Program-made: the position numbers and the translations under genes
Notes under the pieces: generated by a model
The model's database searches: none
Told to the model about the DNA's origin: nothing
The model's input: the letters and a program-made list of their open reading frames with translations, nothing else
Part shown: positions 52,514-63,343 of the stretch, in pieces
Layout of the letters: the number at the start of each line of letters is the position of its first letter
Numbering within the stretch: the first letter of the stretch is position 1
Sequence record: PZ445134.1
DNA length: 64,000 nt
Strand: one strand, 5' to 3'
Source of the DNA: a phage

Positions 52514-52521
52514 TATAAATA
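52514..52521 (+). promoter_or_regulatory. late promoter TATAAATA for gene 34
   Basis: exact TATAAATA 35 nt upstream of the ATG. Confidence 0.6.
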
Positions 52522-52555: not shown

Positions 52556-55500
52556 ATGGTTGACATCAAACGTAAGTTCAGGGCCGAAGATGGTCTTGAC
52601 GCAGGCGGTGATAAGATAGTTAACGTTGCGCTTGCTGACCGCACAGTTGGCACCGATGGCGTGAACGTTGACTTTTTGGTGCAAGAAAACACCGTACAGA
52701 ATTATGACGAGACGCGCGCGTATACAAAAGATTTTATTGTTCTTTATGATAATCGTTTTTATCAAGCTTTAAGCGATATTCCAGCTCCGGCAGGCCCTTT
52801 CTCTTTGGCTAAATGGAAGGCAACTCGTACAGATGCAGAATGGATTACAGTTCAAGGCGGAGATTTCCAATTATCAGTAGGTAACTCTATTGCGGTTGAT
52901 ACTTCAGCTGGCACTGATATTAATTTCACTTTGCCTCAAAATCCTTTAGATGGCGATACAGTTATTTTGTCTGATATTGGCGGTAGAGTAGGCTATGTAA
53001 AAGTTCAAATTACTGCAGCGGCTCAAAGTATTGTAAACTTTAGAGGACAACAGGTTCGTTCAGTTTTAATGACGCACCCAAAATCTAAAATGGTCTTCAT
53101 TTTTAGCAACCGCCTATGGCAAATGTATGTTTCTGATTACGAACGTAATGCAGTCACAGTAACTCCTGCTAAGCCATATCAAGCACAACCTAACGATTTT
53201 ATCATTCGACATTTTACATCAGCCGCTCCTATTAATATTACATTGCCTCGTAATGCTAATAATGGCGATATTATTAATTTAGTGGATTTAGACAAATTAA
53301 ACCCATTATATCACACAATTGTCAAAACTTACGATGATACAACTTCTATACGAGAAGCTGGTGTTCATGTAGCAGAAGGACGTAATACTGCGGAAGCATT
53401 CTTTGTTTATGATTCTGCCAATAGTTTATGGCGTGTTTGGGAAGGTGACCAGAAATCTCGTTTACGTATAGTTCGTAATGATACTGATTTACGCCCTAAT
53501 GAAGAAGTTCTTGTTTTTGGAACTGATAATAATACAATCTCGACGGTAAATCTTACTTTGCCTACAGATATTTTGTCTGGCGATACTGTTAAAATATCGT
53601 TGAATTATATGCGTAAAGGGCAAACTGTAAAAATTAAAGCTGCTGAAGGCGATACAATTGCTAGCAGTATTTCTTTATTACAGTTCCCAAAACGTTCTGA
53701 GTATCCACCTGATGCACAATGGGTTTCTGTTAGTGAGCTGGAATTTAATGGTGATACTTCGTATGTACCTGTACTTGAGTTATCTTATATAGAAGATTAT
53801 TCATCTGAAACAAAATATTGGGTAGTTCAACAAAACACCGTAACCGTCGAACGAGTCGATGCATCTAGCAATAACACTCGAGCTCGTTTAGGTGTTATTG
53901 CTCTTGCTTCTCAAGAGCAAGCAAATGTCGATTTAGAAAATGCTCCTGGTAAAGAACTGGCTATTACTCCTGAAACATTAGCAAATCGTACAGCAACTGA
54001 AACTCGTCGTGGTATTGCTCGTATTGCAACAACTGCACAAGTTAACCAGAATACCGATTTTGCATTCCAAGACGACTTGATTATTTCTCCTAAGAAATTG
54101 AACGAACGTACAGCAACTGAAACCCGTAGAGGTGTTGCTGAAGTTGCAACTCAGGCTGAAACTAATGCTGGAACAGATGACACCACTATTATTACTCCTA
54201 AGAAATTGGATGCCCGTCAAGGTTCTGAAGTTTTATCCGGTATTGTAAAATACACATCTACGACTGGTACTACAGCTGCTACTATTCGCGGTAATGCTGG
54301 GACTAACGTTTATAACAAAGCCGTAGATAATTTAACTATTTCTCCAAAGGCTCTTGACCAGTATAAAGCTACCCCTACTCAGCAGGGTGCAGTAATTCTT
54401 GCTATTGAAAGTGAAGTTATCGCTGGCGAATCACAAGCCGGTTGGGCTAATGCTGTAGTGACCCCTGAAACTCTGCATAAGAAAACTTCTACTGATGGAC
54501 GTATTGGTTTAATTGAAATTGCTACGCAAGCAGAAACTAACACTGGAACTGATTATACTAGAGCAGTAACGCCTAAGACGTTAAATGATAGGAAAGCTAC
54601 GGAAGGATTATCTGGCATAGCCGAAATTGCTACGCAAGTTGAATTTGATACTGGAACTGACGATACTCGTATCTCGTCTCCACTGAAAATTAAAACTCAT
54701 TTTGATTCTTCTGACCGTACCAGTGTTAATTCTGATTCCGGACTTATTGAAGAAGGAACCTTGTGGAACCATTATACTCTTGATATTTCTAAAGCAAATG
54801 AAACACAACGCGGTACACTTCGCGTAGCGACCCAGGCAGAATCTAATGCAGGAACTTTAGATGATGTTCTTATTACTCCTAAAAAGCTTTTAGGGACTAA
54901 GTCCACTGAAACGTCTGAAGGCGTGATTAAGGTTGCTACTCAGGCTGAAACTGTAACAGGAACTTCTGCTAATACTGCTGTATCACCTAAGAATTTAAAA
55001 TGGATTGTTCAATCAGAACCATCATGGACTGCTACTACGGCAATTCGTGGATTCGTTAAAACTTCATCTGGTTCTATTACATTTGTCGGTGACGATACTC
55101 AAGGTAATACCCAGGATTTGAATCTTTATGAGAAAAATAGTTATGCTATTTCTCCATATGAATTAAACCGTGTACTTGCTAACTACTTACCGTTGAAAGC
55201 TAAAGCAGCTGATAGTAATTTGTTAGATGGTCTAGATTCTCTTCAGTTCATCCGTAGAGACATCGACCAGACGGTTAATGGTTCTTTAAGTTTTACTAAA
55301 CAGACCAACCTGAGTGCTCCTTTAGTATCTACAAGCACTGCTTCTTTTGGTTCCGAAGCATCTGTTACTCGTAGATTAACTCTTAATGACTCTAGCGGTT
55401 CCGAAATAATTTTCACTAAAGGAACCCAATCTCTTAGTAATAAAGAGAATTTCGTTGTTAGAGCATGGGGTAATAGCGCTACAGATGGTGCCCGTGATAC

Positions 55501-56389
55501 AGTATTTGAAGCGGGTGACGAAACCGGATACCATTTCTATTCTCAGCGCGCTGCTGATAATAGAGTATCATTTAATATTAATGGAACACTTTATTCAACA
55601 GGTATTGTTTCTACAAATGGATTAAATGTTACAGGTGTTTCTACCTTTACCGGGCCTATTAGTGCTACAGGCGAAATTGTTTCTAGTTCTCCTATTGCAT
55701 TCAGAGCTATTAACGGTAACTATGGTGTTATGCTTTATAATGCTGGTAACAGTTCTTATATTGCATTAACTAACTCAGGTGACCAGACCGGGACGTTTAA
55801 TAACTTACGCCCGATCACGATTAACAATGCCACAGGATTAGTTCGTCTTGACAACGGCGTTCAAATCACAAGTGGTGCAACAATAACTACCGGTGGGTTA
55901 ACTGTAAATAACAGAATTATTTCTAACGGCGTTAAAACTGCCACTGTTTATACCGATAAACCAACAGCTTCTACTGTAGGTTTTTGGTCTATTGACATTA
56001 ACGATTCTGCTGTATATAGCCAATTCCCTGGATACTGGACGCGTGATAACAAAGGTAACCGTGACCAAGAAATTAAATATCCTGGTACTTTGACTCAATT
56101 TGGTAATAGCTTAGATTCGCTTTATCAGGATTGGATTTGTTATCCTACAGGTGCAAATGGTGGTAGTATTCGTTATACTCGTACCTGGCAGAAAAATAAA
56201 GATGCTTGGACTTCATTTGCAATGGTATTTGATAGTGGCAACCCACCTTCACCTAGCGATGTCGGTGCTATCCCATCTGATAATGCTGTTATTGGAAACC
56301 TTACTATTCGAGACTTCTTACAATTAGGAAATGTGAGAATTGTTCCGGACCCGGTTAACAAAACAGTTAAATTTATATGGGTTGAATAA
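52556..56389 (+). CDS. 34: long tail fibre proximal subunit
   Basis: 1277 aa; internal tandem sequence repeats; T4 gp34 size and position. Confidence 0.93.
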   Translation: MVDIKRKFRAEDGLDAGGDKIVNVALADRTVGTDGVNVDFLVQENTVQNYDETRAYTKDFIVLYDNRFYQALSDIPAPAGPFSLAKWKATRTDAEWITVQGGDFQLSVGNSIAVDTSAGTDINFTLPQNPLDGDTVILSDIGGRVGYVKVQITAAAQSIVNFRGQQVRSVLMTHPKSKMVFIFSNRLWQMYVSDYERNAVTVTPAKPYQAQPNDFIIRHFTSAAPINITLPRNANNGDIINLVDLDKLNPLYHTIVKTYDDTTSIREAGVHVAEGRNTAEAFFVYDSANSLWRVWEGDQKSRLRIVRNDTDLRPNEEVLVFGTDNNTISTVNLTLPTDILSGDTVKISLNYMRKGQTVKIKAAEGDTIASSISLLQFPKRSEYPPDAQWVSVSELEFNGDTSYVPVLELSYIEDYSSETKYWVVQQNTVTVERVDASSNNTRARLGVIALASQEQANVDLENAPGKELAITPETLANRTATETRRGIARIATTAQVNQNTDFAFQDDLIISPKKLNERTATETRRGVAEVATQAETNAGTDDTTIITPKKLDARQGSEVLSGIVKYTSTTGTTAATIRGNAGTNVYNKAVDNLTISPKALDQYKATPTQQGAVILAIESEVIAGESQAGWANAVVTPETLHKKTSTDGRIGLIEIATQAETNTGTDYTRAVTPKTLNDRKATEGLSGIAEIATQVEFDTGTDDTRISSPLKIKTHFDSSDRTSVNSDSGLIEEGTLWNHYTLDISKANETQRGTLRVATQAESNAGTLDDVLITPKKLLGTKSTETSEGVIKVATQAETVTGTSANTAVSPKNLKWIVQSEPSWTATTAIRGFVKTSSGSITFVGDDTQGNTQDLNLYEKNSYAISPYELNRVLANYLPLKAKAADSNLLDGLDSLQFIRRDIDQTVNGSLSFTKQTNLSAPLVSTSTASFGSEASVTRRLTLNDSSGSEIIFTKGTQSLSNKENFVVRAWGNSATDGARDTVFEAGDETGYHFYSQRAADNRVSFNINGTLYSTGIVSTNGLNVTGVSTFTGPISATGEIVSSSPIAFRAINGNYGVMLYNAGNSSYIALTNSGDQTGTFNNLRPITINNATGLVRLDNGVQITSGATITTGGLTVNNRIISNGVKTATVYTDKPTASTVGFWSIDINDSAVYSQFPGYWTRDNKGNRDQEIKYPGTLTQFGNSLDSLYQDWICYPTGANGGSIRYTRTWQKNKDAWTSFAMVFDSGNPPSPSDVGAIPSDNAVIGNLTIRDFLQLGNVRIVPDPVNKTVKFIWVE
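53940..54960 (+). repeat. imperfect tandem coding repeats inside gene 34 (about 8 copies of a roughly 40-aa motif)
   Basis: protein repeats of the form T-x-E-x-x-x-G-(I/V)-x-x-(I/V)-A-T-Q-A-E-x-N-x-G-T-D-x-x-x-x-(I/V)-(T/S)-P-K-x-L. Confidence 0.7.
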
Positions 56390-56397
56390 GAGGTTAT

Positions 56398-57522
56398 ATG
56401 GAAAAATTTATGGCAAGGTTTGGACAGGGATACGTCCAAACGCCGTTTTTATCGGAAAGCAATTCAGTTAGATTTAAGCTAAGTATAGCGGGTTCATGCC
56501 CGCTTTCAACAACTAATCCGTATATTTTGTTCCAAAACGAGCCTTTAGGGTTGCAGTCTTTTGGTATTGGACTAAATGTTAGGGTGATAAATCCGGAAAA
56601 TGGAACTATAGTTGATAGTAAATTATACAATTTTGCGCCTACAAATAATGCAACTTCAGCTGCATTTATTTCGTTTGTTAATACATACGCAGATAATTTC
56701 ATTTTCGCATTTATTTCTAATAACAAATTTAATTTGCCGCCGGAAATAATTGAATGGTTTAAAGCTGCTGGGAGTTCAGTTATACCGTCAATTGAAGTTG
56801 CTAGTCTTGTTGATATTTCATATTCAGCGTTTTATGTTTCAGGTAAAAATACTATTGCATTAGAACACATAAAATACAGTAATAAGAAAACAATTTCTGA
56901 TTACGCAACTCCATTAGATATTGTATATGACTCTATTGCTGATATAGGTGCTACCGGCTATCCTAGACGTACATATGAAGCTCTAGAAACGTTTTTATCT
57001 CATGTTGGAAGAACTAACAATGAAATAAAAAGGATGCCTACATCATCCCTTGTTACTCCTATCGCAAACTATGGATTAAAGCCTACAGATTTTCTTTATT
57101 TGAAATTTCAATTAATGGCTGATGAAGAATTATTAGAGGAAGGAACCACAAGACTTTCAATTCGTTTCTTTAAGTCTCCATCTAGCTCTCCTATATCATC
57201 TAAAGATATAAACTTTGATGGAACTGCCGGGGAGTGGAAGCTATATGAAGAATACGTTGAAATACCAGCTGAAGCTGATGGCTTTACAGTATATTGTTAC
57301 CGTACGGCCTCAGTCGGTCAAGGTGGACTAAGAAATGTTATTTTCACTGAAGTATCATGTAACGGAAGTATAGCAAAACCAGCCGAGTTTGGTATAAACG
57401 GTATTCGTGTTAATTACATTGATGAATCATTAACCGGTAATGATATAATGGACTTGCCTACTCAGTTATCTAACGACACAGGTAAGGTATTTGGGCAGGA
57501 ATTTAAAGAGTACACAGAATAA
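56398..57522 (+). CDS. 35: long tail fibre hinge connector
   Basis: 374 aa, T4 gp35 size and position. Confidence 0.88.
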   Translation: MEKFMARFGQGYVQTPFLSESNSVRFKLSIAGSCPLSTTNPYILFQNEPLGLQSFGIGLNVRVINPENGTIVDSKLYNFAPTNNATSAAFISFVNTYADNFIFAFISNNKFNLPPEIIEWFKAAGSSVIPSIEVASLVDISYSAFYVSGKNTIALEHIKYSNKKTISDYATPLDIVYDSIADIGATGYPRRTYEALETFLSHVGRTNNEIKRMPTSSLVTPIANYGLKPTDFLYLKFQLMADEELLEEGTTRLSIRFFKSPSSSPISSKDINFDGTAGEWKLYEEYVEIPAEADGFTVYCYRTASVGQGGLRNVIFTEVSCNGSIAKPAEFGINGIRVNYIDESLTGNDIMDLPTQLSNDTGKVFGQEFKEYTE

Positions 57523-57547: not shown

Positions 57548-57555
57548 TATAAATA
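57548..57555 (+). promoter_or_regulatory. late promoter TATAAATA for gene 36
   Basis: exact TATAAATA 27 nt upstream of the ATG. Confidence 0.6.
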
Positions 57556-57581: not shown

Positions 57582-58238
57582 ATGGCCGATTTAAAAGCCG
57601 GAAGTACAGTTGGTGGTTCCGTCATATGGCATCAAGGCAATTTTCCTTTAATGCCAGCTGGCGATGACATCCTATATAAAACATTTAAATTATACACCGA
57701 ATATAACAAGCCAAAAGCGGCTGATAACGATTTCGTATCTAAAGCAAACGGTGGGACATATCTCAAAAAGGTAATCTTTAACGAAGGTGTTGCAGTCAAA
57801 ACAACAGATGACCAAACGAATGGTATTTTTTCTGGTGGTGGTGACGCCGCGACATTCGACCAAACAAACATGGATATTGTTTCGTGGTATGGTATTGGGT
57901 TTAAATCATCTCAAGGTACAGGTGAAAGAACTGTTGTAATTGATACTCGCACCGGTAATATAAGTTCTAAAGGCGTTATTGAAGCATCTCAATTCAGAGC
58001 CACAACGTTAGCACCTTTAAATAATTACGACCTTACTCGCAAAGATTATGTTGATAGTCAAATAAATACAGTTAATGCTAATGCAAACAGTCGTGTACTC
58101 CGTTCAGGAGATACGATGACCGGCGCGCTAACCGCCCCAAACTTTTTCTCACAGAATCCTGCATCTCAACCCTCGCATGTTCCACGATTTGACCAAATTG
58201 TTATTAAGGATTCTGTTCAAGATTTCGGCTATTATTAA
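57582..58238 (+). CDS. 36: long tail fibre distal connector
   Basis: 218 aa, T4 gp36 size and position. Confidence 0.88.
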   Translation: MADLKAGSTVGGSVIWHQGNFPLMPAGDDILYKTFKLYTEYNKPKAADNDFVSKANGGTYLKKVIFNEGVAVKTTDDQTNGIFSGGGDAATFDQTNMDIVSWYGIGFKSSQGTGERTVVIDTRTGNISSKGVIEASQFRATTLAPLNNYDLTRKDYVDSQINTVNANANSRVLRSGDTMTGALTAPNFFSQNPASQPSHVPRFDQIVIKDSVQDFGYY

Positions 58239-58246
58239 GAGGACTT

Positions 58247-61200
58247 ATGGCTACTTTAAAACAAATACAATTTAAAAGAAGCAAAACTGCAGGAGCACGT
58301 CCTGCTGCTTCAGTATTAGCCGAAGGTGAATTGGCTATAAACTTAAAAGACCGTGTACTTTTTACTAAAGATGACCAAGGAAATATTATTGATCTGGGTT
58401 TTGCTAAAGGTGGTAGTATTGACGGGAATGTTATTCATACTGGCAATTATAACCAAACTGGCGATTATACTTTAAATGGAACCTTCACTCAGACAGGTAA
58501 TTTTAATTTAACTGGTATTGCTCGAGTAACTCGCGATATTATTGCCGCCGGGCAGATTATGACCGAAGGCGGAGAACTTATTACAAAAAGTTCAGGTACA
58601 TCACATGTTCGTTTTTTCGATGGCAATAGCCGCGAACGTGGCATTATCTTTTCGCCAAATAATGCTGGAGCGACCACTCAGGTAGTTAATATTCGCGTAC
58701 AAGATTATGCCGCTGATAGCGAAAGCATTTATGCGTTTTCAGGCAACGGTGTATTTTCTTCACCTGAAGTATCGGCACGGAAATCTATTTCGTCTCCACA
58801 AATTCTGACCAATAAAGTTATTACAGATGGGAAGAAGACAGGCGATTATGATATCTATTCATTAGCAAATAACACTCCATTGGCAGAAAGCGAAACGGCT
58901 ATTAACCACCTCCGCGTTATGCGAAATGCCGTAGGATCTGGTATATTCCATGAAGTTAAAGATAACTACGGGATAACCTGGTACGCCGGTGACGGGTTAG
59001 ATGCCTATCTTTGGTCGTTTACCTGGTCCGGTGGATTGAAAGCAGGCCATTCTGTTTCTATAGGTCTTCCAGGTGGCTCTAAAGGATACTCTGAACTAGG
59101 GACTGCTTCGATTGCTCTTGGTGATAATGATACCGGATTTAAATGGCATCAGGACGGATATTTTCATACAGTAAACAACGGAACAAGAACTTTCGTTTAC
59201 GGTCCTGCGGAAACACAAAGCCTTAGAAAAATGGTTATGGGTTATTCTCCGGATGGGATTCTTATGACAACGCCACCGACAGAAAACTATGCATTAGCCA
59301 CTGTTGTTACTTACCATGATAATAACGCGTTTGGAGATGGTCAGACTCTTTTGGGATATTATCAAGGCGGTAACTATCATCATTATTTCCGCGGCAAGGG
59401 TACCACAAACATTAATACTCATGGCGGTTTGTTAGTTACTCCAGGTAATATTGATGTTATTGGCGGTTCTGTTAATATTGATGGTCGTAATAATGCTTCT
59501 ACGCTGATGTTTAGAGGTAACACAACTGGTAGCAGTTCAGTTGATAATATGACAATTTCTGTATGGGGTAATACGTTTACTAATCCTAGTGTAGGTAATC
59601 GTAAAAATGTCATGGAAATTTCTGACGCAACTAGCTGGATGAGTTATATTCAAAGACTTACTACCGGTGAAGTAGAAATGAACGTCAATGGTTCATTTGA
59701 ATCATCCGGTGTTACTGCTGGAAATAGAGGAGTTCACACAACAGGCGAAATTTCATCTGGAGCAGTTAATGCGCTTCGCATTTGGAATGCAGATTATGGA
59801 GCCATTTTTAGACGTTCAGAAGGCAGTCTTCATATTATTCCAACTGCTTACGGTGAAGGTAAACATGGCGATATCGGTCCACTTCGCCCGTTTAGTATGG
59901 CTTTAGATACTGGTAAAGTTACTATTCCAGATTTACAATCAAGTTACAATACGTTTGCTGCTAACGGTTATATTAAATTTGTTGGTCATGGAGCGGGTGC
60001 CGGCGGTTATGACATTCAATATGTTCAAGCAGCTCCTATTTTCCAGGAAATTGATGATGATGCTATAAGCAAATATTATCCTATTGTTAAACAGAAGTTT
60101 TTAAACGGCAAAGCTGTTTGGTCTTTAGGTACTGAAATTAATTCGGGTACATTCGTTATTCATCATCTGAAAGAAGATGGTTCACAAGGCCATACGTCTC
60201 GTTTTAATCAAGACGGTACTGTTAACTTCCCAGATAACGTTTCTGTCGGCGGTGGTGAAGCTACTATTGCTCGCAATGGTAATATCTGGTCTGATATCTG
60301 GAAAACGTTTACTTCAGCAGGCGACGTAACTAATATTCGCGATGCAATAGCTACTCGTGTTGCTAAAGAAGGCGATACGATGACCGGCACTCTTTGGATT
60401 AATAAAGATGCTGCCGGAATAGTTCTTAATCCTCCTTTGGCTAGTGATTCGTCATTTATTCGTTCTGATACGGCCGGGGCCAATAATTGGTATATTGGTA
60501 AAGGCGGTGCCGACAATGGTCTAGGTTTTTACAGTTACATTACACAAGGCGGTGTATACATAACAAATAACGGCGAAATATCGCTTTCTCCTCAAGGTCA
60601 AGGAACATTTAATTTTAATAGAGACCGCCTTCATATAAACGGTACACAATGGGTTGCGCATAAATCTGGCGCCTGGGGTGACCAATGGGGTTTAGAAGCT
60701 CCTATATTTGTAGATTTTGGATCCGTCAGCAATGACTGCTATTATCCTATTATTAAAGGAAAATCTGGTATTACTAACGAAGGATATTTTTCCGGCGTAG
60801 ATTTTGGTATGCGACGCATTACTAATAACTGGGCACAAGGTATTATTCGTGTAGGTAACCAGGAAAATGGCCATGACCCACAAGCTATATATGAATTCCA
60901 TCATAACGGCACTTTTTATTCTCCTAACATGGTTAAAACCGGCGCAAGACTATCAGCTGGTGGTGGTGACCCGGTATGGACTGGACCATGTCTTGTTATT
61001 GGTGATAATGACACTGGCTTAGTATGGGGTGGCGACGGTCGAATAAATATGGTTGCCAATGGTATACATATTGCAAACTGGGGAGCAGGCTATCAATCTC
61101 ATCCTGGGCTTTGGGATTCAACCGGCGCTTTTTGGACAGAAACTGGAAGAGCTATCGTTTCTCATGGGCATCTCGTTCAGGCAAATGATAGTTATTCAAC

Positions 61201-61561
61201 GTATGTCCGTGATGTTTATGTCCGTTCTGATATTCGCGTTAAAAAAGACCTTGTTAAATTTGAAAATGCTTCTCAGAAGCTTTCTAAAATTAACGGTTAC
61301 ACTTATATGCAGAAGCGAGGCCTAGATGAAGAAGGCAATCAGAAATGGGAACCTAACGCAGGTTTGATAGCTCAAGAAGTTCAAGCTATTTTACCTGAAT
61401 TAGTTGAAGGTGACACTGATGGCGAAGCTTTACTTCGTTTGAACTATAACGGTGTAATTGGTTTAAATACAGCTGCAATCAATGAGCATACTGCAGAAAT
61501 TGCAGAACTTAAGTCAGAGATTGAAGAGCTTAAAAAATTAGTTAAATCATTGTTAAAATAA
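58247..61561 (+). CDS. 37: long tail fibre distal subunit with C-terminal intramolecular chaperone-like domain
   Basis: 1104 aa; C-terminal SDIRVKKDL ... coiled-coil tail resembles auto-cleaving tail-fibre chaperone domains. Confidence 0.9.
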   Translation: MATLKQIQFKRSKTAGARPAASVLAEGELAINLKDRVLFTKDDQGNIIDLGFAKGGSIDGNVIHTGNYNQTGDYTLNGTFTQTGNFNLTGIARVTRDIIAAGQIMTEGGELITKSSGTSHVRFFDGNSRERGIIFSPNNAGATTQVVNIRVQDYAADSESIYAFSGNGVFSSPEVSARKSISSPQILTNKVITDGKKTGDYDIYSLANNTPLAESETAINHLRVMRNAVGSGIFHEVKDNYGITWYAGDGLDAYLWSFTWSGGLKAGHSVSIGLPGGSKGYSELGTASIALGDNDTGFKWHQDGYFHTVNNGTRTFVYGPAETQSLRKMVMGYSPDGILMTTPPTENYALATVVTYHDNNAFGDGQTLLGYYQGGNYHHYFRGKGTTNINTHGGLLVTPGNIDVIGGSVNIDGRNNASTLMFRGNTTGSSSVDNMTISVWGNTFTNPSVGNRKNVMEISDATSWMSYIQRLTTGEVEMNVNGSFESSGVTAGNRGVHTTGEISSGAVNALRIWNADYGAIFRRSEGSLHIIPTAYGEGKHGDIGPLRPFSMALDTGKVTIPDLQSSYNTFAANGYIKFVGHGAGAGGYDIQYVQAAPIFQEIDDDAISKYYPIVKQKFLNGKAVWSLGTEINSGTFVIHHLKEDGSQGHTSRFNQDGTVNFPDNVSVGGGEATIARNGNIWSDIWKTFTSAGDVTNIRDAIATRVAKEGDTMTGTLWINKDAAGIVLNPPLASDSSFIRSDTAGANNWYIGKGGADNGLGFYSYITQGGVYITNNGEISLSPQGQGTFNFNRDRLHINGTQWVAHKSGAWGDQWGLEAPIFVDFGSVSNDCYYPIIKGKSGITNEGYFSGVDFGMRRITNNWAQGIIRVGNQENGHDPQAIYEFHHNGTFYSPNMVKTGARLSAGGGDPVWTGPCLVIGDNDTGLVWGGDGRINMVANGIHIANWGAGYQSHPGLWDSTGAFWTETGRAIVSHGHLVQANDSYSTYVRDVYVRSDIRVKKDLVKFENASQKLSKINGYTYMQKRGLDEEGNQKWEPNAGLIAQEVQAILPELVEGDTDGEALLRLNYNGVIGLNTAAINEHTAEIAELKSEIEELKKLVKSLLK

Positions 61562-61565
61562 TAGA

Positions 61566-61579
61566 GGGGCTTCGGCCCC
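61566..61579 (+). terminator. UUCG-tetraloop hairpin between genes 37 and 38, no U-tract; may be an RNA stability element
   Basis: ggggcttcggcccc immediately before the GGAGG Shine-Dalgarno of gene 38. Confidence 0.35.
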
Positions 61580-61591
61580 TTGGAGGTTTAT

Positions 61592-62365
61592 ATGGCAGTT
61601 GAAGGACCGTGGGTAGGATGGTCTGCAAGGGTACAGACTGGAGATCCTTGGATGGGTGGTGCCGCACAGAGATTAAGAATGGGCATTCCGTTCTGGATGA
61701 GTAATATGATAGGTCGATCTGTTGAAGTAATTCACACACTTGGAGCAGACCATAACTTCAATGGTCAATGGTTCCGAGATAGATGTTTTGAGGCAGGCAG
61801 TGCACCTATAGTGTTTAATATCACTGGAAATTTAGTATCATATAGTAAAGATGTTCCATTATTCTTTATGTATGGCGATACACCAAATGAATATGTTACT
61901 TTGAATATTCATGGTGGTGTTCATATGTGGGGCCGAGGTGGTAATGGTAGCGTAAATGGAAGCCCAGGCACAAATGGCGGCGATGTAATCCAAAATGATA
62001 TCGGCGGAAGACTTCGTATTTGGAACTACGGCGTTATTGCATCAGGTGGCGGTGGCGGTGGTGCAGTGTCGTTAAAGAATAGCTGGCCTGCAAATTCTAC
62101 AGCAGGTGGCGGTGGTGGTAGACCATTTGGCATCGGCGGTGGCGGCGTTAATTGGCCTGGTGGTAATGCTAGTTATGACGGTCCAGGTGGTGGTGGTGGT
62201 ACAAGTCAATATGGCGGTGGGCGTGGCGGTGATGCTGGAGGTTGGGGCGGAGATGGATGGGGTAAGAACTTGTCCAGATCTGGCGGTGGTGCTCCTGGCA
62301 GAGCAGTATTCGGAAGTTCACCGTCATGGGGTGCTACAGGCACAATCTACGGCTCCTGGATTTAA
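61592..62365 (+). CDS. 38: receptor-recognising adhesin, T2-type gp38 with glycine-rich motifs
   Basis: 257 aa from [10 protein letters not shown]; conserved N-terminal domain then several poly-Gly blocks flanking short variable segments. Confidence 0.88.
62040..62260 (+). repeat. glycine-codon repeats (GGTGGCGGTGG...) encoding the glycine-rich motifs of gp38
   Basis: repeated ggtggcggtggtgg blocks read directly in sequence. Confidence 0.8.
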
Positions 62366-62383: not shown

Positions 62384-62391
62384 TATAAATA
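62384..62391 (+). promoter_or_regulatory. late promoter TATAAATA for holin gene t
   Basis: exact TATAAATA 20 nt upstream of the ATG at 62411. Confidence 0.55.
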
Positions 62392-62410
62392 TTGATAAAT
62401 GGGAGGTAAT

Positions 62411-63070
62411 ATGGCAGCACCAAAAGTATCATTTTCGCCTAGTGATATTTTATTTGGGTTGCTAGACCGCATTTTCAAAGATAACGCCTCTGGAAATATT
62501 CTTATTTCAAGAGTTGCTGTTGTAGTTCTTTTGTTCCTAATGGCACTAATATGGTACAAAGGGAATATTTTTATGGATTATTACGTGAGGTCTAAATATG
62601 ATACTTACACAGAAGTAATTCAAAAAGAAAGAAATACACGATTTGAATCTGCGGCTTTAGAGCAACTACAAATAGTCCACGTCACATCAAGGGCGGATTT
62701 TAGTTCGGTGTATTCTTTCAGACCTAAAAATCTAAATTATTTCGTCGACCTTATTGCGTATGAAGGTAAGTTACCTAGCACAGTAACTGAAAAATCTATG
62801 GGAGGATTTCCTGTTGATAAAACGACAGCAGAATATTCAGTCCATTTAAGTGGACTTCACTTTACTTCTAAAACAGATTTTGCTTTCTTACCTACCAAAT
62901 CAAAAACTCCGGAACTGGCGTATATGTATAGTTGTCCTTACTTCAATTTGGATAACATATATGCTGGAACTGTTTCTATGTATTGGTATAAGGGGTCGGA
63001 TGTGTTAAATGAAGAACGCTTGGCTGCAATATGCAACCAAGCAGCAAGGATATTAGGGCGGGCTAAATAA
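62411..63070 (+). CDS. t: holin T
   Basis: 219 aa from MAAPKVSFSPSDILFGLLDRIFKDN; single transmembrane segment and large periplasmic domain; C-terminus ...AARILGRAK. Confidence 0.92.
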   Translation: MAAPKVSFSPSDILFGLLDRIFKDNASGNILISRVAVVVLLFLMALIWYKGNIFMDYYVRSKYDTYTEVIQKERNTRFESAALEQLQIVHVTSRADFSSVYSFRPKNLNYFVDLIAYEGKLPSTVTEKSMGGFPVDKTTAEYSVHLSGLHFTSKTDFAFLPTKSKTPELAYMYSCPYFNLDNIYAGTVSMYWYKGSDVLNEERLAAICNQAARILGRAK

Positions 63071-63343
63071 TTAGTTGTTAGAATACATCGTCAAATGGCG
63101 ATAAATATTTTCAAAACCTTCATTGAATTCACTAATCAGTGTTTTCTTTTCTTCGGCAGTTAAATTTGTAATTAGTTTTCTGAACGAATTCTGATTTAGC
63201 TGCCGACCATCTTTTTTAATTCCAATCTCATTCAAGAATCCGATGAAATTTGCTCGGTCTTCAACAATATCTTCCCTCGAGAATTTAATCAAAATAGAAG
63301 CAACCGTAATAATTTCACGTACAATTTCAATATCTTTATTCAT
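63071..63343 (-). CDS. asiA: anti-sigma70 factor AsiA
   Basis: 90 aa; MNKDIEIVREIITVASILIKFSREDIVE... recognisably T4 AsiA. Confidence 0.9.
   Translation of the reverse strand: MNKDIEIVREIITVASILIKFSREDIVEDRANFIGFLNEIGIKKDGRQLNQNSFRKLITNLTAEEKKTLISEFNEGFENIYRHLTMYSNN

Follow-up and report, generated by a model that had tools for sequence, protein, structure and literature searches.

Organization of the gene 37/38 locus

The window, by which we mean the entire 64,000-nucleotide stretch of phage DNA analyzed here (PZ445134.1), belongs to a Mosigvirus, and its gene order, g34-g35-g36-g37-g38-t-asiA, is that of RB69. Gene 37, encoding the distal long-tail-fiber subunit of 1104 amino acids, occupies positions 58247 to 61561 of the plus strand, on which all the features described below also lie. 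Its open reading frame matches the Pfam families Gp34_trimer and Peptidase_S74, and gp37 is annotated at the corresponding position in RB69, FL31, JS10, and RB51. A gap of 30 nt separates the gene 37 stop codon from gene 38 (61592 to 62365), which encodes a tail-fiber adhesin of the T2/S16 type (PF21721 and PF05268) of 257 amino acids plus a stop codon. Neither exact protein sequence, gp37 or gp38, was present in a public collection of 15 billion proteins. A stretch of gene 37 at 60392 to 60491 was considered as unique, with approximately 48% identity to six relatives, but was found to be 98.4% identical to phage ECP52 and was set aside as ordinary mosaicism.

The gap between the two genes contains an RNA hairpin, GAGGGGC-UUCG-GCCCCUU (61564 to 61581; folding energy, -14.5 kcal/mol; z, -2.15), directly 5' of the gene 38 Shine-Dalgarno sequence GGAGG (61582 to 61586). 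T2, T4, ABTNLsp5, and Bas46 carry a hairpin at the same junction, with different stems. We rejected the hairpin as a g37-g38 terminator, as it was terminator-like on the minus strand only and no T-run follows it on the plus strand. The ATG of gene 38 at 61592 lies 5 nt past GGAGG; a TTG at 61580 was also considered as the start, but the Shine-Dalgarno spacing and the MAV with which every homologue begins argue against it. Motifs of the form TATAAATA were located upstream of g34, g36, and t, and none was found between g36 and g38; genes 36, 37, and 38 probably share one late transcription unit. Sigma-70 promoters between 61000 and 63400 were not above chance (6 seen versus 7.7 expected).

gp38 has the architecture of the T2-type adhesins

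The first 40 residues of gp38 (61592 to 61711) match Gp38_N (PF21721; E value, 6.1e-20; 71.4 bits against a cutoff of 25), and residues 45 to 257 match GP38 (PF05268; E value, 3.5e-81; 272.6 bits against a cutoff of 25). Comparison with the solved adhesins gave E values of 1.8e-75 for PP01 (9v85) and 7e-47 for S16 (6f45_D), and the family matches are far beyond chance. The N-terminal attachment domain contains W7, W20, and W35, each at least 90% conserved among 45 homologues and each aligning with a Trp residue of S16 gp38, where these residues have been described as prongs that enter pockets in gp37 (PMC6851490). Residues 1 to 44 are 100% identical to those of RB69. A first-pass annotation of this DNA had described gp38 as a 257-residue protein with a conserved N-terminal domain and the architecture of a T2-type adhesin, and our analysis agrees on each point. 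An AlphaFold model of gp38 (pLDDT, 84.1) matched 9v85_C with a TMt of 0.93 and an rmsd of 1.3 A, as a predicted structure, and 6f45_D with TM scores of 0.81/0.83; no other fold matched the model with an E value below 1. The modeled fold is predicted to be a beta-helix followed by a polyglycine-II sandwich. Because the Pfam architecture is that of T2 gp38, there is no similarity to T4 gp38, and the predicted fold is that of the PP01 and S16 adhesins, gp38 is of the adhesin type, unlike the chaperone type of T4.

Glycine makes up 26% of gp38 and 36% of residues 110 to 257, with six runs of 3 to 6 Gly. In an alignment of 45 sequences, from which the variable segments were set by entropy profile, these runs were invariant or nearly so and bracketed five high-entropy segments. 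This bears out the proposal that poly-Gly blocks flank short variable segments and corresponds to the published scheme in which conserved Gly-rich motifs alternate with hypervariable segments (PMC3157838). Segment 1 (residues 120 to 126, SVNGSPG; 61949 to 61969) is identical to that of JS10, MN04, and ABTNLsp5 and 71% identical to that of RB69, RB51, and FL31. Segment 2 (residues 159 to 171; 62066 to 62104) holds K162, a residue unique to the window, while segment 3 (residues 183 to 190, GGGVNWPG; 62138 to 62161) shows no differences across the RB69/JS10 group. Segment 4 (residues 201 to 209, GGGTSQYGG) corresponds to the published HVS3 loop, and segment 5 spans residues 219 to 233 (62246 to 62290).

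A divergent tract surrounds residue Q206

Segment 4 lies within a divergent, recombination-like tract identified in the nucleotide alignment (codons 197 to 211; 62180 to 62224). Relative to RB69, MN04, and FL31, 13 of 30 nt differ, all in one 30-nt block, and JS10, RB51, and LF82-1 show the same cluster of differences against the tract. The differences include a switch of Ser codon family (AGT versus TCC), and Gly codons lie on both flanks. ABTNLsp5 has ACAAGTCAA of the tract in common with the window. The best match among the phage records searched was 90.6%, an exact 29-mer of the HVS3 tract was absent from IMG/VR, and the nearest donor-like allele belongs to a phage isolated on Salmonella. 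At the protein level, none of nine close relatives has K162, G203, Y207, or R211, and the last three surround a retained Q206 (CAA, 62207 to 62209), all within five residues of it. From its sequence, the Q206 patch resembles a short tract of recombination, approximately 45 nt long, with Gly codons at its borders.

The first-pass annotation had also called the Gly-codon repeats prone to recombination. The 45-nt divergent tract with its flanking Gly codons favors this idea, but the repeats within the gene are short and imperfect, comprising GGTGGCGGTGG-type direct repeats of 12 to 20 nt within 62040 to 62292; documented gp38 recombination takes place between phages, at conserved Gly motifs.

OmpF is the most likely primary receptor

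The variable segments between the Gly motifs of gp38 have been identified as specificity determinants (PMC3157838; bioRxiv 10.64898/2026.04.02.716166), and this published work supports the earlier suggestion that they determine host range here. The first-pass annotation had proposed aligning these segments with adhesins of known specificity, and in that alignment the OmpF binders were nearest. Over residues 114 to 257, gp38 is 90% identical to RB69, RB51, FL31, and fPS-2, 94% identical to JS10 and ABTNLsp5, both receptor-untested relatives, and 47 to 59% identical to T2, T6, M1, AV119, FL08, PP01, and S16, which are Tsx, OmpA, OmpC, and FadL binders. OmpF is required by RB69 and RB51 (PMC3157838; bioRxiv 10.64898/2026.04.02.716166), and Yersinia OmpF is the receptor of fPS-2 (PMC7917993). 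Since the gp38 loops are near-identical to those of RB69, RB51, FL31, and fPS-2, we predict that OmpF is most likely the primary receptor. FhuA and a complete lipopolysaccharide core are reported as further requirements of RB69 and RB51 (PMC3157838), and OmpF may thus be insufficient.

This prediction is weakened by the three window-unique substitutions near Q206 and by FL31, whose dependence on OmpF/TolC is weak (PMC12032242), with an OmpF effect of only about one log. Q206 has been modeled at the tip of the binding loop, and Q206L alone reportedly switches RB51 from OmpF to OmpW (bioRxiv 10.64898/2026.04.02.716166). We could not use RB68 as the reference sequence for Q206L, as the RB51 and RB68 gp38 genes in GenBank are identical, and the preprint is consequently our sole source for this substitution. 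We therefore weighed whether the protein is the same adhesin but with a new allele (G203, Y207, R211, and K162) that has moved its primary receptor away from OmpF of the K-12 type, either to another small porin, such as OmpW, or to a different OmpF loop variant, such as that of a non-K-12 or Salmonella-like host. The clustering of three of the four unique residues around a position at which one substitution redirects RB51, together with a tract that was imported or has diverged, is found in no searched phage record or in IMG/VR, and has its nearest donor-like allele on a Salmonella-isolated phage, would fit such a shift, as would the lack of the exact protein among 15 billion. However, Q206 itself is kept, the other four variable segments are 69 to 100% identical to those of OmpF binders in a domain that is 90% identical as a whole, and the changes from F to Y207 and from N to R211 are modest. 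Closely related gp38 proteins moreover have receptors in common (PMC12032242). We consider a shifted receptor fairly unlikely; if it were true, it would represent natural retargeting at the level of a single loop by microrecombination at Gly-codon motifs.

gp37 ends in a predicted self-cleaving chaperone domain

The C terminus of gp37 was proposed in the first-pass annotation to be chaperone-like over its last 110 or so residues, starting from SDIRVKKDL. This is upheld by a Peptidase_S74 match, a Ser/Lys dyad, and 57% identity to the corresponding domain of S16. The Peptidase_S74, or intramolecular chaperone, domain (PF13884) comprises 111 residues, S994 to K1104 (61226 to 61558), and the match covers residues 994 to 1053 (E value, 2.5e-12; 47.3 bits against a curated cutoff of 22). 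SDIRVKKDL begins at residue 994, nucleotide 61226; the module had earlier been started at 61229, which is the Asp codon, so that the feature is real but the domain begins one codon earlier. Counted from S994, the 111 residues end in ...NEHTAEIAELKSEIEELKKLVKSLLK. Against S16 gp37 (6f45_A) the C terminus gave an E value of 1.7e-46.

The putative catalytic residues form a Ser-x4-Lys dyad within SDIRVK, S994 (61226 to 61228) and K999 (61241 to 61243), and both the SD.R.K motif and the dyad spacing are common to the window, RB69, T2, S16, and Bas46. A more distant match to the MyRF intramolecular chaperone domain (ICA; 7dc3; E value, 0.023) places K999 opposite K592 and S994 opposite the position of S587, S587/K592 corresponding to the described Ser-Lys dyad S911/K916 (PMC8326128). 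The alignment predicts R993-S994 as the scissile bond: DVYVR/SDIRVKK of the window aligns with the reported S16 site DLNVS/SDRRIKK and with DVYIR/SDGRLKI of fPS (PMC7917993), the slash marking the bond. DVYVR (residues 989 to 993; 61211 to 61225) would be the last residues of mature gp37 and is kept in RB69, FL31, JS10, RB51, and MN04. At the other end of the domain, the segment NTAAINEHTAEIAELKSEIEELKKLVKSLLK (61466 to 61558), described earlier as a coiled-coil-like tail, can be aligned to the C terminus of S16 gp37 with no gaps and is presumed to be the trimerizing helix; in the MyRF ICA, a C-terminal triple coiled coil drives trimerization (PMC8326128).

Could the domain instead stay in the mature fiber, uncleaved or cleaved yet bound, with gp38 docking elsewhere? 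The intact dyad and flanking motif argue against this, as does the strong conservation of the domain, which is 95 to 98% identical to that of close relatives while the preceding gp37 tip is 62 to 95% identical. In addition, the last 113 residues of S16 gp37 reportedly autocleave, which exposes the surface on which gp38 docks, according to a passage in PMC7917993 citing Dunne 2018, and C-terminal processing of T2 and T6 gp37 is mentioned in PMC3157838, citing Drexler 1986. Retention of the domain is thus very improbable.

The last alternative, that gp38 is an assembly chaperone of the T4 type, absent from the virion, and that gp37 itself binds the receptor, is scarcely credible, and we rejected it after comparing both proteins directly with their T4 counterparts. 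It draws on labels in the style of "distal long tail fiber assembly catalyst" on RB69, JS10, ECP52, IME281, and many other GenBank records and on the suggestion that T2-type gp38 also helps in assembly before remaining attached (PMC7917993). However, T4 gp38 (183 amino acids) gave a BLASTP E value of 1.3 against the window gp38, with a best local match of 9 residues, and has no Pfam GP38 match; T4 gp37 carries the tip domains Collar and Phage_fiber but no PF13884, whereas the reverse is true of the window gp37, with PF13884 present and both of these tip domains lacking. The RB69 record itself carries a note calling T2-subfamily gp38 an unrelated adhesin. For T2-type gene 38, the "assembly catalyst" label common in GenBank is incorrect.

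A model for the fiber tip

Taken together, the sequence comparisons make it very probable that this locus encodes the receptor-recognition tip of the long tail fiber of an RB69-like phage of the T-even type, and that the tip follows the T2/S16 plan, combining a gp37 with a self-cleaving domain and a Gly-rich adhesin, gp38. The analysis shows to which domain families the proteins belong, the motifs they carry, the predicted fold of gp38, how the alleles are related, and the mosaic structure, and no sequence evidence contradicting the model was found.

By analogy with S16, T2, endosialidase NF, and MyRF, gp37 would be synthesized with its C-terminal 111-residue chaperone domain, and three such domains would trimerize through their C-terminal helices. 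The chaperone trimer would assist folding of the upstream beta-helical fiber, after which the Ser994/Lys999 dyad would cleave the domain off at R993-S994. The fresh C-terminal face, ending in the DVYVR strand proposed as the gp38 docking face, would then receive one gp38 monomer, with W7, W20, and W35 of the N-terminal helical domain plugging into gp37. The remainder of gp38 would form a small beta-helix and Gly-rich polyglycine-II helices extending as a sandwich, and the short variable loops between these helices would touch the outer-membrane receptor. Autocleavage, the 3:1 assembly, the location of gp38 in the virion, and the OmpF receptor are the parts of the model that would follow from related systems.

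The newness is limited to the allele; the tip module itself is ordinary and well studied, and this allele resolves no open question. The value of the module is practical rather than conceptual: it sets the host range of the phage, and receptor specificity is now being predicted and re-engineered from gp38 loop alleles. With this allele, one more natural variant becomes available at the loop in which a one-residue change reportedly switches porins, and the allele also offers a clear example of an exchange tract of roughly 45 nt bounded by Gly codons.

Comparison with known systems

RB69 (Mosigvirus, AY303349) has the same gene order, gp38 length (257 amino acids), and intergenic hairpin as the window, and its gp37 is 1103 residues long compared with 1104. 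Its allelic group includes JS10, MN04, RB51, RB68, FL31, and the LF82 phages. The window gp38 is 94.6% identical to that of RB69 and 94.9% identical to those of JS10 and MN04, with K162, G203, Y207, and R211 setting it apart from the group; the chaperone domain is 97 to 98% identical, and t and asiA downstream share 98 to 100% DNA identity with RB69. By sequence, the tip module is a new mosaic of RB69-group alleles. Its gp37 tip is FL31-like (94.6% versus 82.6% for RB69), the gp38 N terminus is RB69-like (98% DNA identity versus 79% for FL31), and variable segments 1 and 2 are JS10/ABTNLsp5-like.

Salmonella phage S16 (PDB 6F45; Dunne et al. 2018) has the same two-protein gp37-gp38 design (PMC6851490, PMC7917993), and its gp38 has in common with that of the window the Trp-bearing N-terminal domain, beta-helix, and polyglycine-II sandwich. 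The two gp38 proteins are 48% identical, but their variable loops are unrelated (8 to 33% identity); S16 binds OmpC whereas OmpF is predicted for the window, and S16 has Ser just before the scissile bond where the window has Arg. The PP01 gp38 receptor-binding domain (PDB 9V85; mBio 2026, PMC12892980) has a beta-helix core 91% identical over residues 45 to 113, while its variable loops are 7 to 56% identical, and it binds O157 OmpC. In T2 (AP018813), the Pfam architecture of both gp37 and gp38 is identical to that of the window, and a UUCG hairpin also lies between genes 37 and 38. A passage in PMC3157838 describes T2 gp37 as proteolytically processed and capped by gp38. T2 gp38 is 50% identical and its chaperone domain 34% identical, its gp37 is longer (1341 amino acids), and T2 proved to be FadL dependent in the BASEL study (PMC8594841).

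The endosialidase NF chaperone domain and the MyRF ICA belong to the same Pfam family, Peptidase S74, as the window gp37 domain, although the MyRF ICA is only distantly related to it. As in these proteins, a Ser-x4-Lys dyad at the start of the domain is followed by a presumably helical C terminus (PMC8326128). Unlike in endosialidase NF and MyRF, the client in the window would be a tail-fiber beta-helix, and the cut end would become the docking site of a separate adhesin.

Organization of the tail fiber gene cluster

A T-even long-tail-fiber cluster lies at the 3' end of the window, identified from open reading frames and Pfam matches; it consists of g34 (52556-56389), g35 (56398-57522), g36 (57582-58238), g37 (58247-61561; 1104 aa) and g38 (61592-62365; 257 aa), followed by the holin gene t (62399-63070) and, on the minus strand, asiA (63071-63343). 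Over 22 kb in another part of the window, the sequence shares ~97% identity with Mosigvirus genomes, such as those of phage SF, AV112 and FL31, and therefore the source is an RB69-like T-even phage. Residues 58 to 131 of gp35 (56398-57522) matched Pfam ILEI (interleukin-like EMT inducer, PF15711; E 6.2e-07, 30.3 bits, cut-off 27), an unexpected family name for a tail-fiber hinge protein.

The T4 late-promoter consensus TATAAATA, present in 20 copies in the window versus 7.3 expected by chance, was found on the + strand at 52514 before g34, at 57548 before g36 and at 62384 before t. The presence of this motif before g36 and its absence between g36 and g38 suggest that g36, g37 and g38 may be expressed as one late transcript. 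The g37 stop codon and the Shine-Dalgarno sequence of g38 are separated by a stable UUCG-loop hairpin (61564-61581, -14.5 kcal/mol), which is not followed by a T-run on the + strand. T2, T4 (in which gene 38 is unrelated), ABTNLsp5 and Bas46 also have a hairpin at this junction, with different stem sequences. In JS10 and MN04, the loop is UUAG.

gp37 ends in a Peptidase S74-type chaperone domain

The first-pass annotation placed the fiber tip at 61229-62365 and proposed that the C terminus of gp37, beginning with SDIRVKKDL, resembles auto-cleaving chaperone domains. The coordinates hold overall, but the start is one codon late, as SDIRVKKDL begins at residue 994 (nt 61226), leaving 111 residues to the C terminus. 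The predicted family was borne out by a match of residues 994 to 1053 to Pfam Peptidase_S74 ("chaperone of endosialidase"; E 2.5e-12, 47.3 bits, cut-off 22) and by matches of the last 204 residues to the Salmonella phage S16 gp37 construct (PDB 6F45; E 1.7e-46) and, more weakly, to the MyRF ICA domain (7DC3; E 0.023). K999 aligned with MyRF K592 and S994 with MyRF position 587; MyRF S587 and K592 are equivalent to S911 and K916 of endosialidase NF, the Ser-Lys dyad indispensable for autocleavage (PMC8326128).

At the predicted cleavage site (marked by a slash), the aligned gp37 sequence reads DVYVR/SDIRVKK, and the equivalent site of fPS phages is DVYIR/SDGRLKI (PMC7917993). The same source reports that S16 gp37 loses its last 113 residues by autocleavage at DLNVS/SDRRIKK, exposing the gp38 docking surface. 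C-terminal proteolytic cleavage and subsequent capping by gp38 are reported for T2 and T6 gp37 (PMC3157838, citing Drexler et al. 1986). From these close homologues, we infer that gp37 may likewise undergo autocleavage. The chaperone domain is 95 to 98% identical to those of RB69, FL31, JS10, RB51 and MN04, versus only 62 to 95% for the preceding 149-residue fiber tip, a pattern that fits conservation of a role in assembly, with a mosaic shaft alongside.

gp38 is predicted to be a T2-type adhesin

The g38 reading frame starts at an ATG at 61592, 5 nt past GGAGG, and MAV opens all homologues. Pfam Gp38_N matched aa 1 to 40 (E 6.1e-20) and GP38 aa 45 to 257 (E 3.5e-81), and gp38 matched the solved receptor-binding domain of PP01 gp38 (9V85; E 1.8e-75) and S16 gp38 (6F45 chain D; E 7e-47). 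An AlphaFold2 model built from a 45-sequence alignment had a mean pLDDT of 84.1, low in the N-terminal 40 residues only, as expected for a domain folding onto gp37. The model superposed on 9V85 chain C (TMt 0.93, rmsd 1.3 A) and 6F45 chain D (TM 0.81/0.83), the only two PDB matches with an E value of <1. These data point to the T2-type adhesin architecture first proposed for the 257-aa protein. Its conserved N-terminal domain was recovered as the Gp38_N match, with W7, W20 and W35 conserved in the alignment, and its poly-Gly blocks as invariant Gly runs bracketing five high-entropy segments (120-126, 159-171, 183-190, 201-209 and 219-233). The S16 counterparts of the three Trp residues are described as prongs that insert into pockets of gp37 (PMC6851490). 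In the published gp38 arrangement, likewise, glycine-rich motifs alternate with hypervariable segments (PMC3157838, PMC6851490).

Two database entries deserve mention. A 303-aa protein on a contig labelled E. coli (P0091) carries Peptidase_S74, Gp38_N and GP38 on one chain, a gp37 tail fused to gp38, for which read-through, a frameshift or an incorrectly called start is a possible cause. A 155-member gp38 cluster (P0066) bears the NCBI name "receptor-recognizing protein [Bacillus cereus]", most likely from a contaminated or mislabelled assembly.

The module is a mosaic allele

The exact gp37 and gp38 sequences were not found in a collection of 15 billion proteins; the nearest gp38 proteins are those of MN04 and JS10 (both 94.9%) and RB69 (94.6%). 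Comparison with relatives in 100-nt windows gave 95 to 100% identity to RB69, FL31 and Bas46 for t and asiA (98 to 100% in most windows), 98% to RB69 and 79% to FL31 for the gp38 N terminus (61592-61691), and 91 to 100% to FL31 and 55 to 87% to RB69 for the gp37 tip (60492-61191), while gp38 variable segments 1 and 2 were JS10/ABTNLsp5-like. RB69-type gp38 alleles span three genera among the nucleotide records compared (L001-L011), namely, Mosigvirus (RB69, FL31 and Bas46), Dhakavirus (JS10, MN04 and ABTNLsp5) and Tequatrovirus (RB51, RB68 and fPS-2), and in each the flanking t and asiA track the genus backbone. The mosaic identities and the spread of this adhesin type support the earlier remark on recombination, in the published sense that phages exchange sequence with one another at conserved motifs (PMC3157838). 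The Gly-codon repeats within the gene, to which that remark referred, are short (12 to 20 nt) and imperfect. Elsewhere in gp37, 60392-60491 (residues ~716-749) is ~48% identical to RB69, FL31, JS10, RB51, MN04 and Bas46, and the sequence around it (60300-60620) matches phage ECP52 at 98.4% identity and phage SF at 96%; by these identities, it is another mosaic patch of the fiber shaft.

Four gp38 residues, K162, G203, Y207 and R211, occur in none of nine close relatives, and the last three fall within a compact tract of codons 197 to 211 (62180-62224), bounded on each side by poly-Gly codons. One 30-nt block differs at 13 positions from RB69, MN04 and FL31, and the printed alignment has the same cluster of tract differences in JS10, RB51 and LF82-1. 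Some of these changes are synonymous, and one Ser codon switches family (AGT versus TCC). The tract carries the apparent signature of a short import, not of point mutation. Its core, ACAAGTCAA, also occurs in ABTNLsp5, a Dhakavirus Salmonella phage that gave the highest database match for 62150-62330 (90.6%), and an exact 29-mer of the tract had no match in IMG/VR.

OmpF is the best receptor prediction

Over the receptor-binding part of gp38 (residues 114 to 257), identity was 90% to RB69, RB51, FL31 and fPS-2 (reported receptor OmpF) and 94% to JS10 and ABTNLsp5 (receptor not known). Identity was 59% to T2 (FadL/OmpF), 52% to AV119 and FL08 (OmpA) and to PP01 (OmpC), 48% to T6 (Tsx) and to M1 (OmpA), and 47% to S16 (OmpC). 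RB69 and RB51 require OmpF, with FhuA and a full LPS core reported as needed too (PMC3157838), and genome-wide screens identified OmpF as the RB51 receptor (bioRxiv 10.64898/2026.04.02.716166). FL31 displays weak OmpF/TolC dependence (PMC12032242), and Yersinia OmpF is the receptor of fPS-2 (PMC7917993). Given the 90% identity and these reports, OmpF is the best prediction for the receptor of this gp38.

Alternatively, the imported tract may have altered specificity. It surrounds Q206 (CAA, 62207-62209), and Q206L in RB51 was reported in a preprint to be necessary and sufficient for a switch from OmpF to OmpW (bioRxiv 10.64898/2026.04.02.716166); a specificity change is therefore conceivable. 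Q206 itself is kept, and we consider such a change unlikely, with OmpF the preferred prediction. In GenBank, RB51 and RB68 have the same gp38 gene sequence (records L005 and L006, positions 1501-2274), and the 2026 preprint attributes to Q206L the specificity for OmpW of the RB68 stock used there; therefore, the deposited RB68 record is without Q206L.

Comparison with T4, T2 and S16

A T4-type chaperone role for gp38 is excluded at the sequence level, since the protein is unrelated to T4 gp38 (E 1.3) and T4 gp37, with its Collar and Phage_fiber domains, lacks the S74 domain present here. Many GenBank records of adhesin-type gp38, including L001 and L003, bear the name "distal long tail fiber assembly catalyst", a T4-type function. 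T2 gp37, like the gp37 described here, has Peptidase_S74. By analogy with close homologues, a 3:1 gp37-gp38 assembly, location on the virion and OmpF binding would be expected. The module is a textbook T2/S16-type fiber tip of an RB69-like phage and, as judged from these comparisons, a mosaic allele without earlier record.
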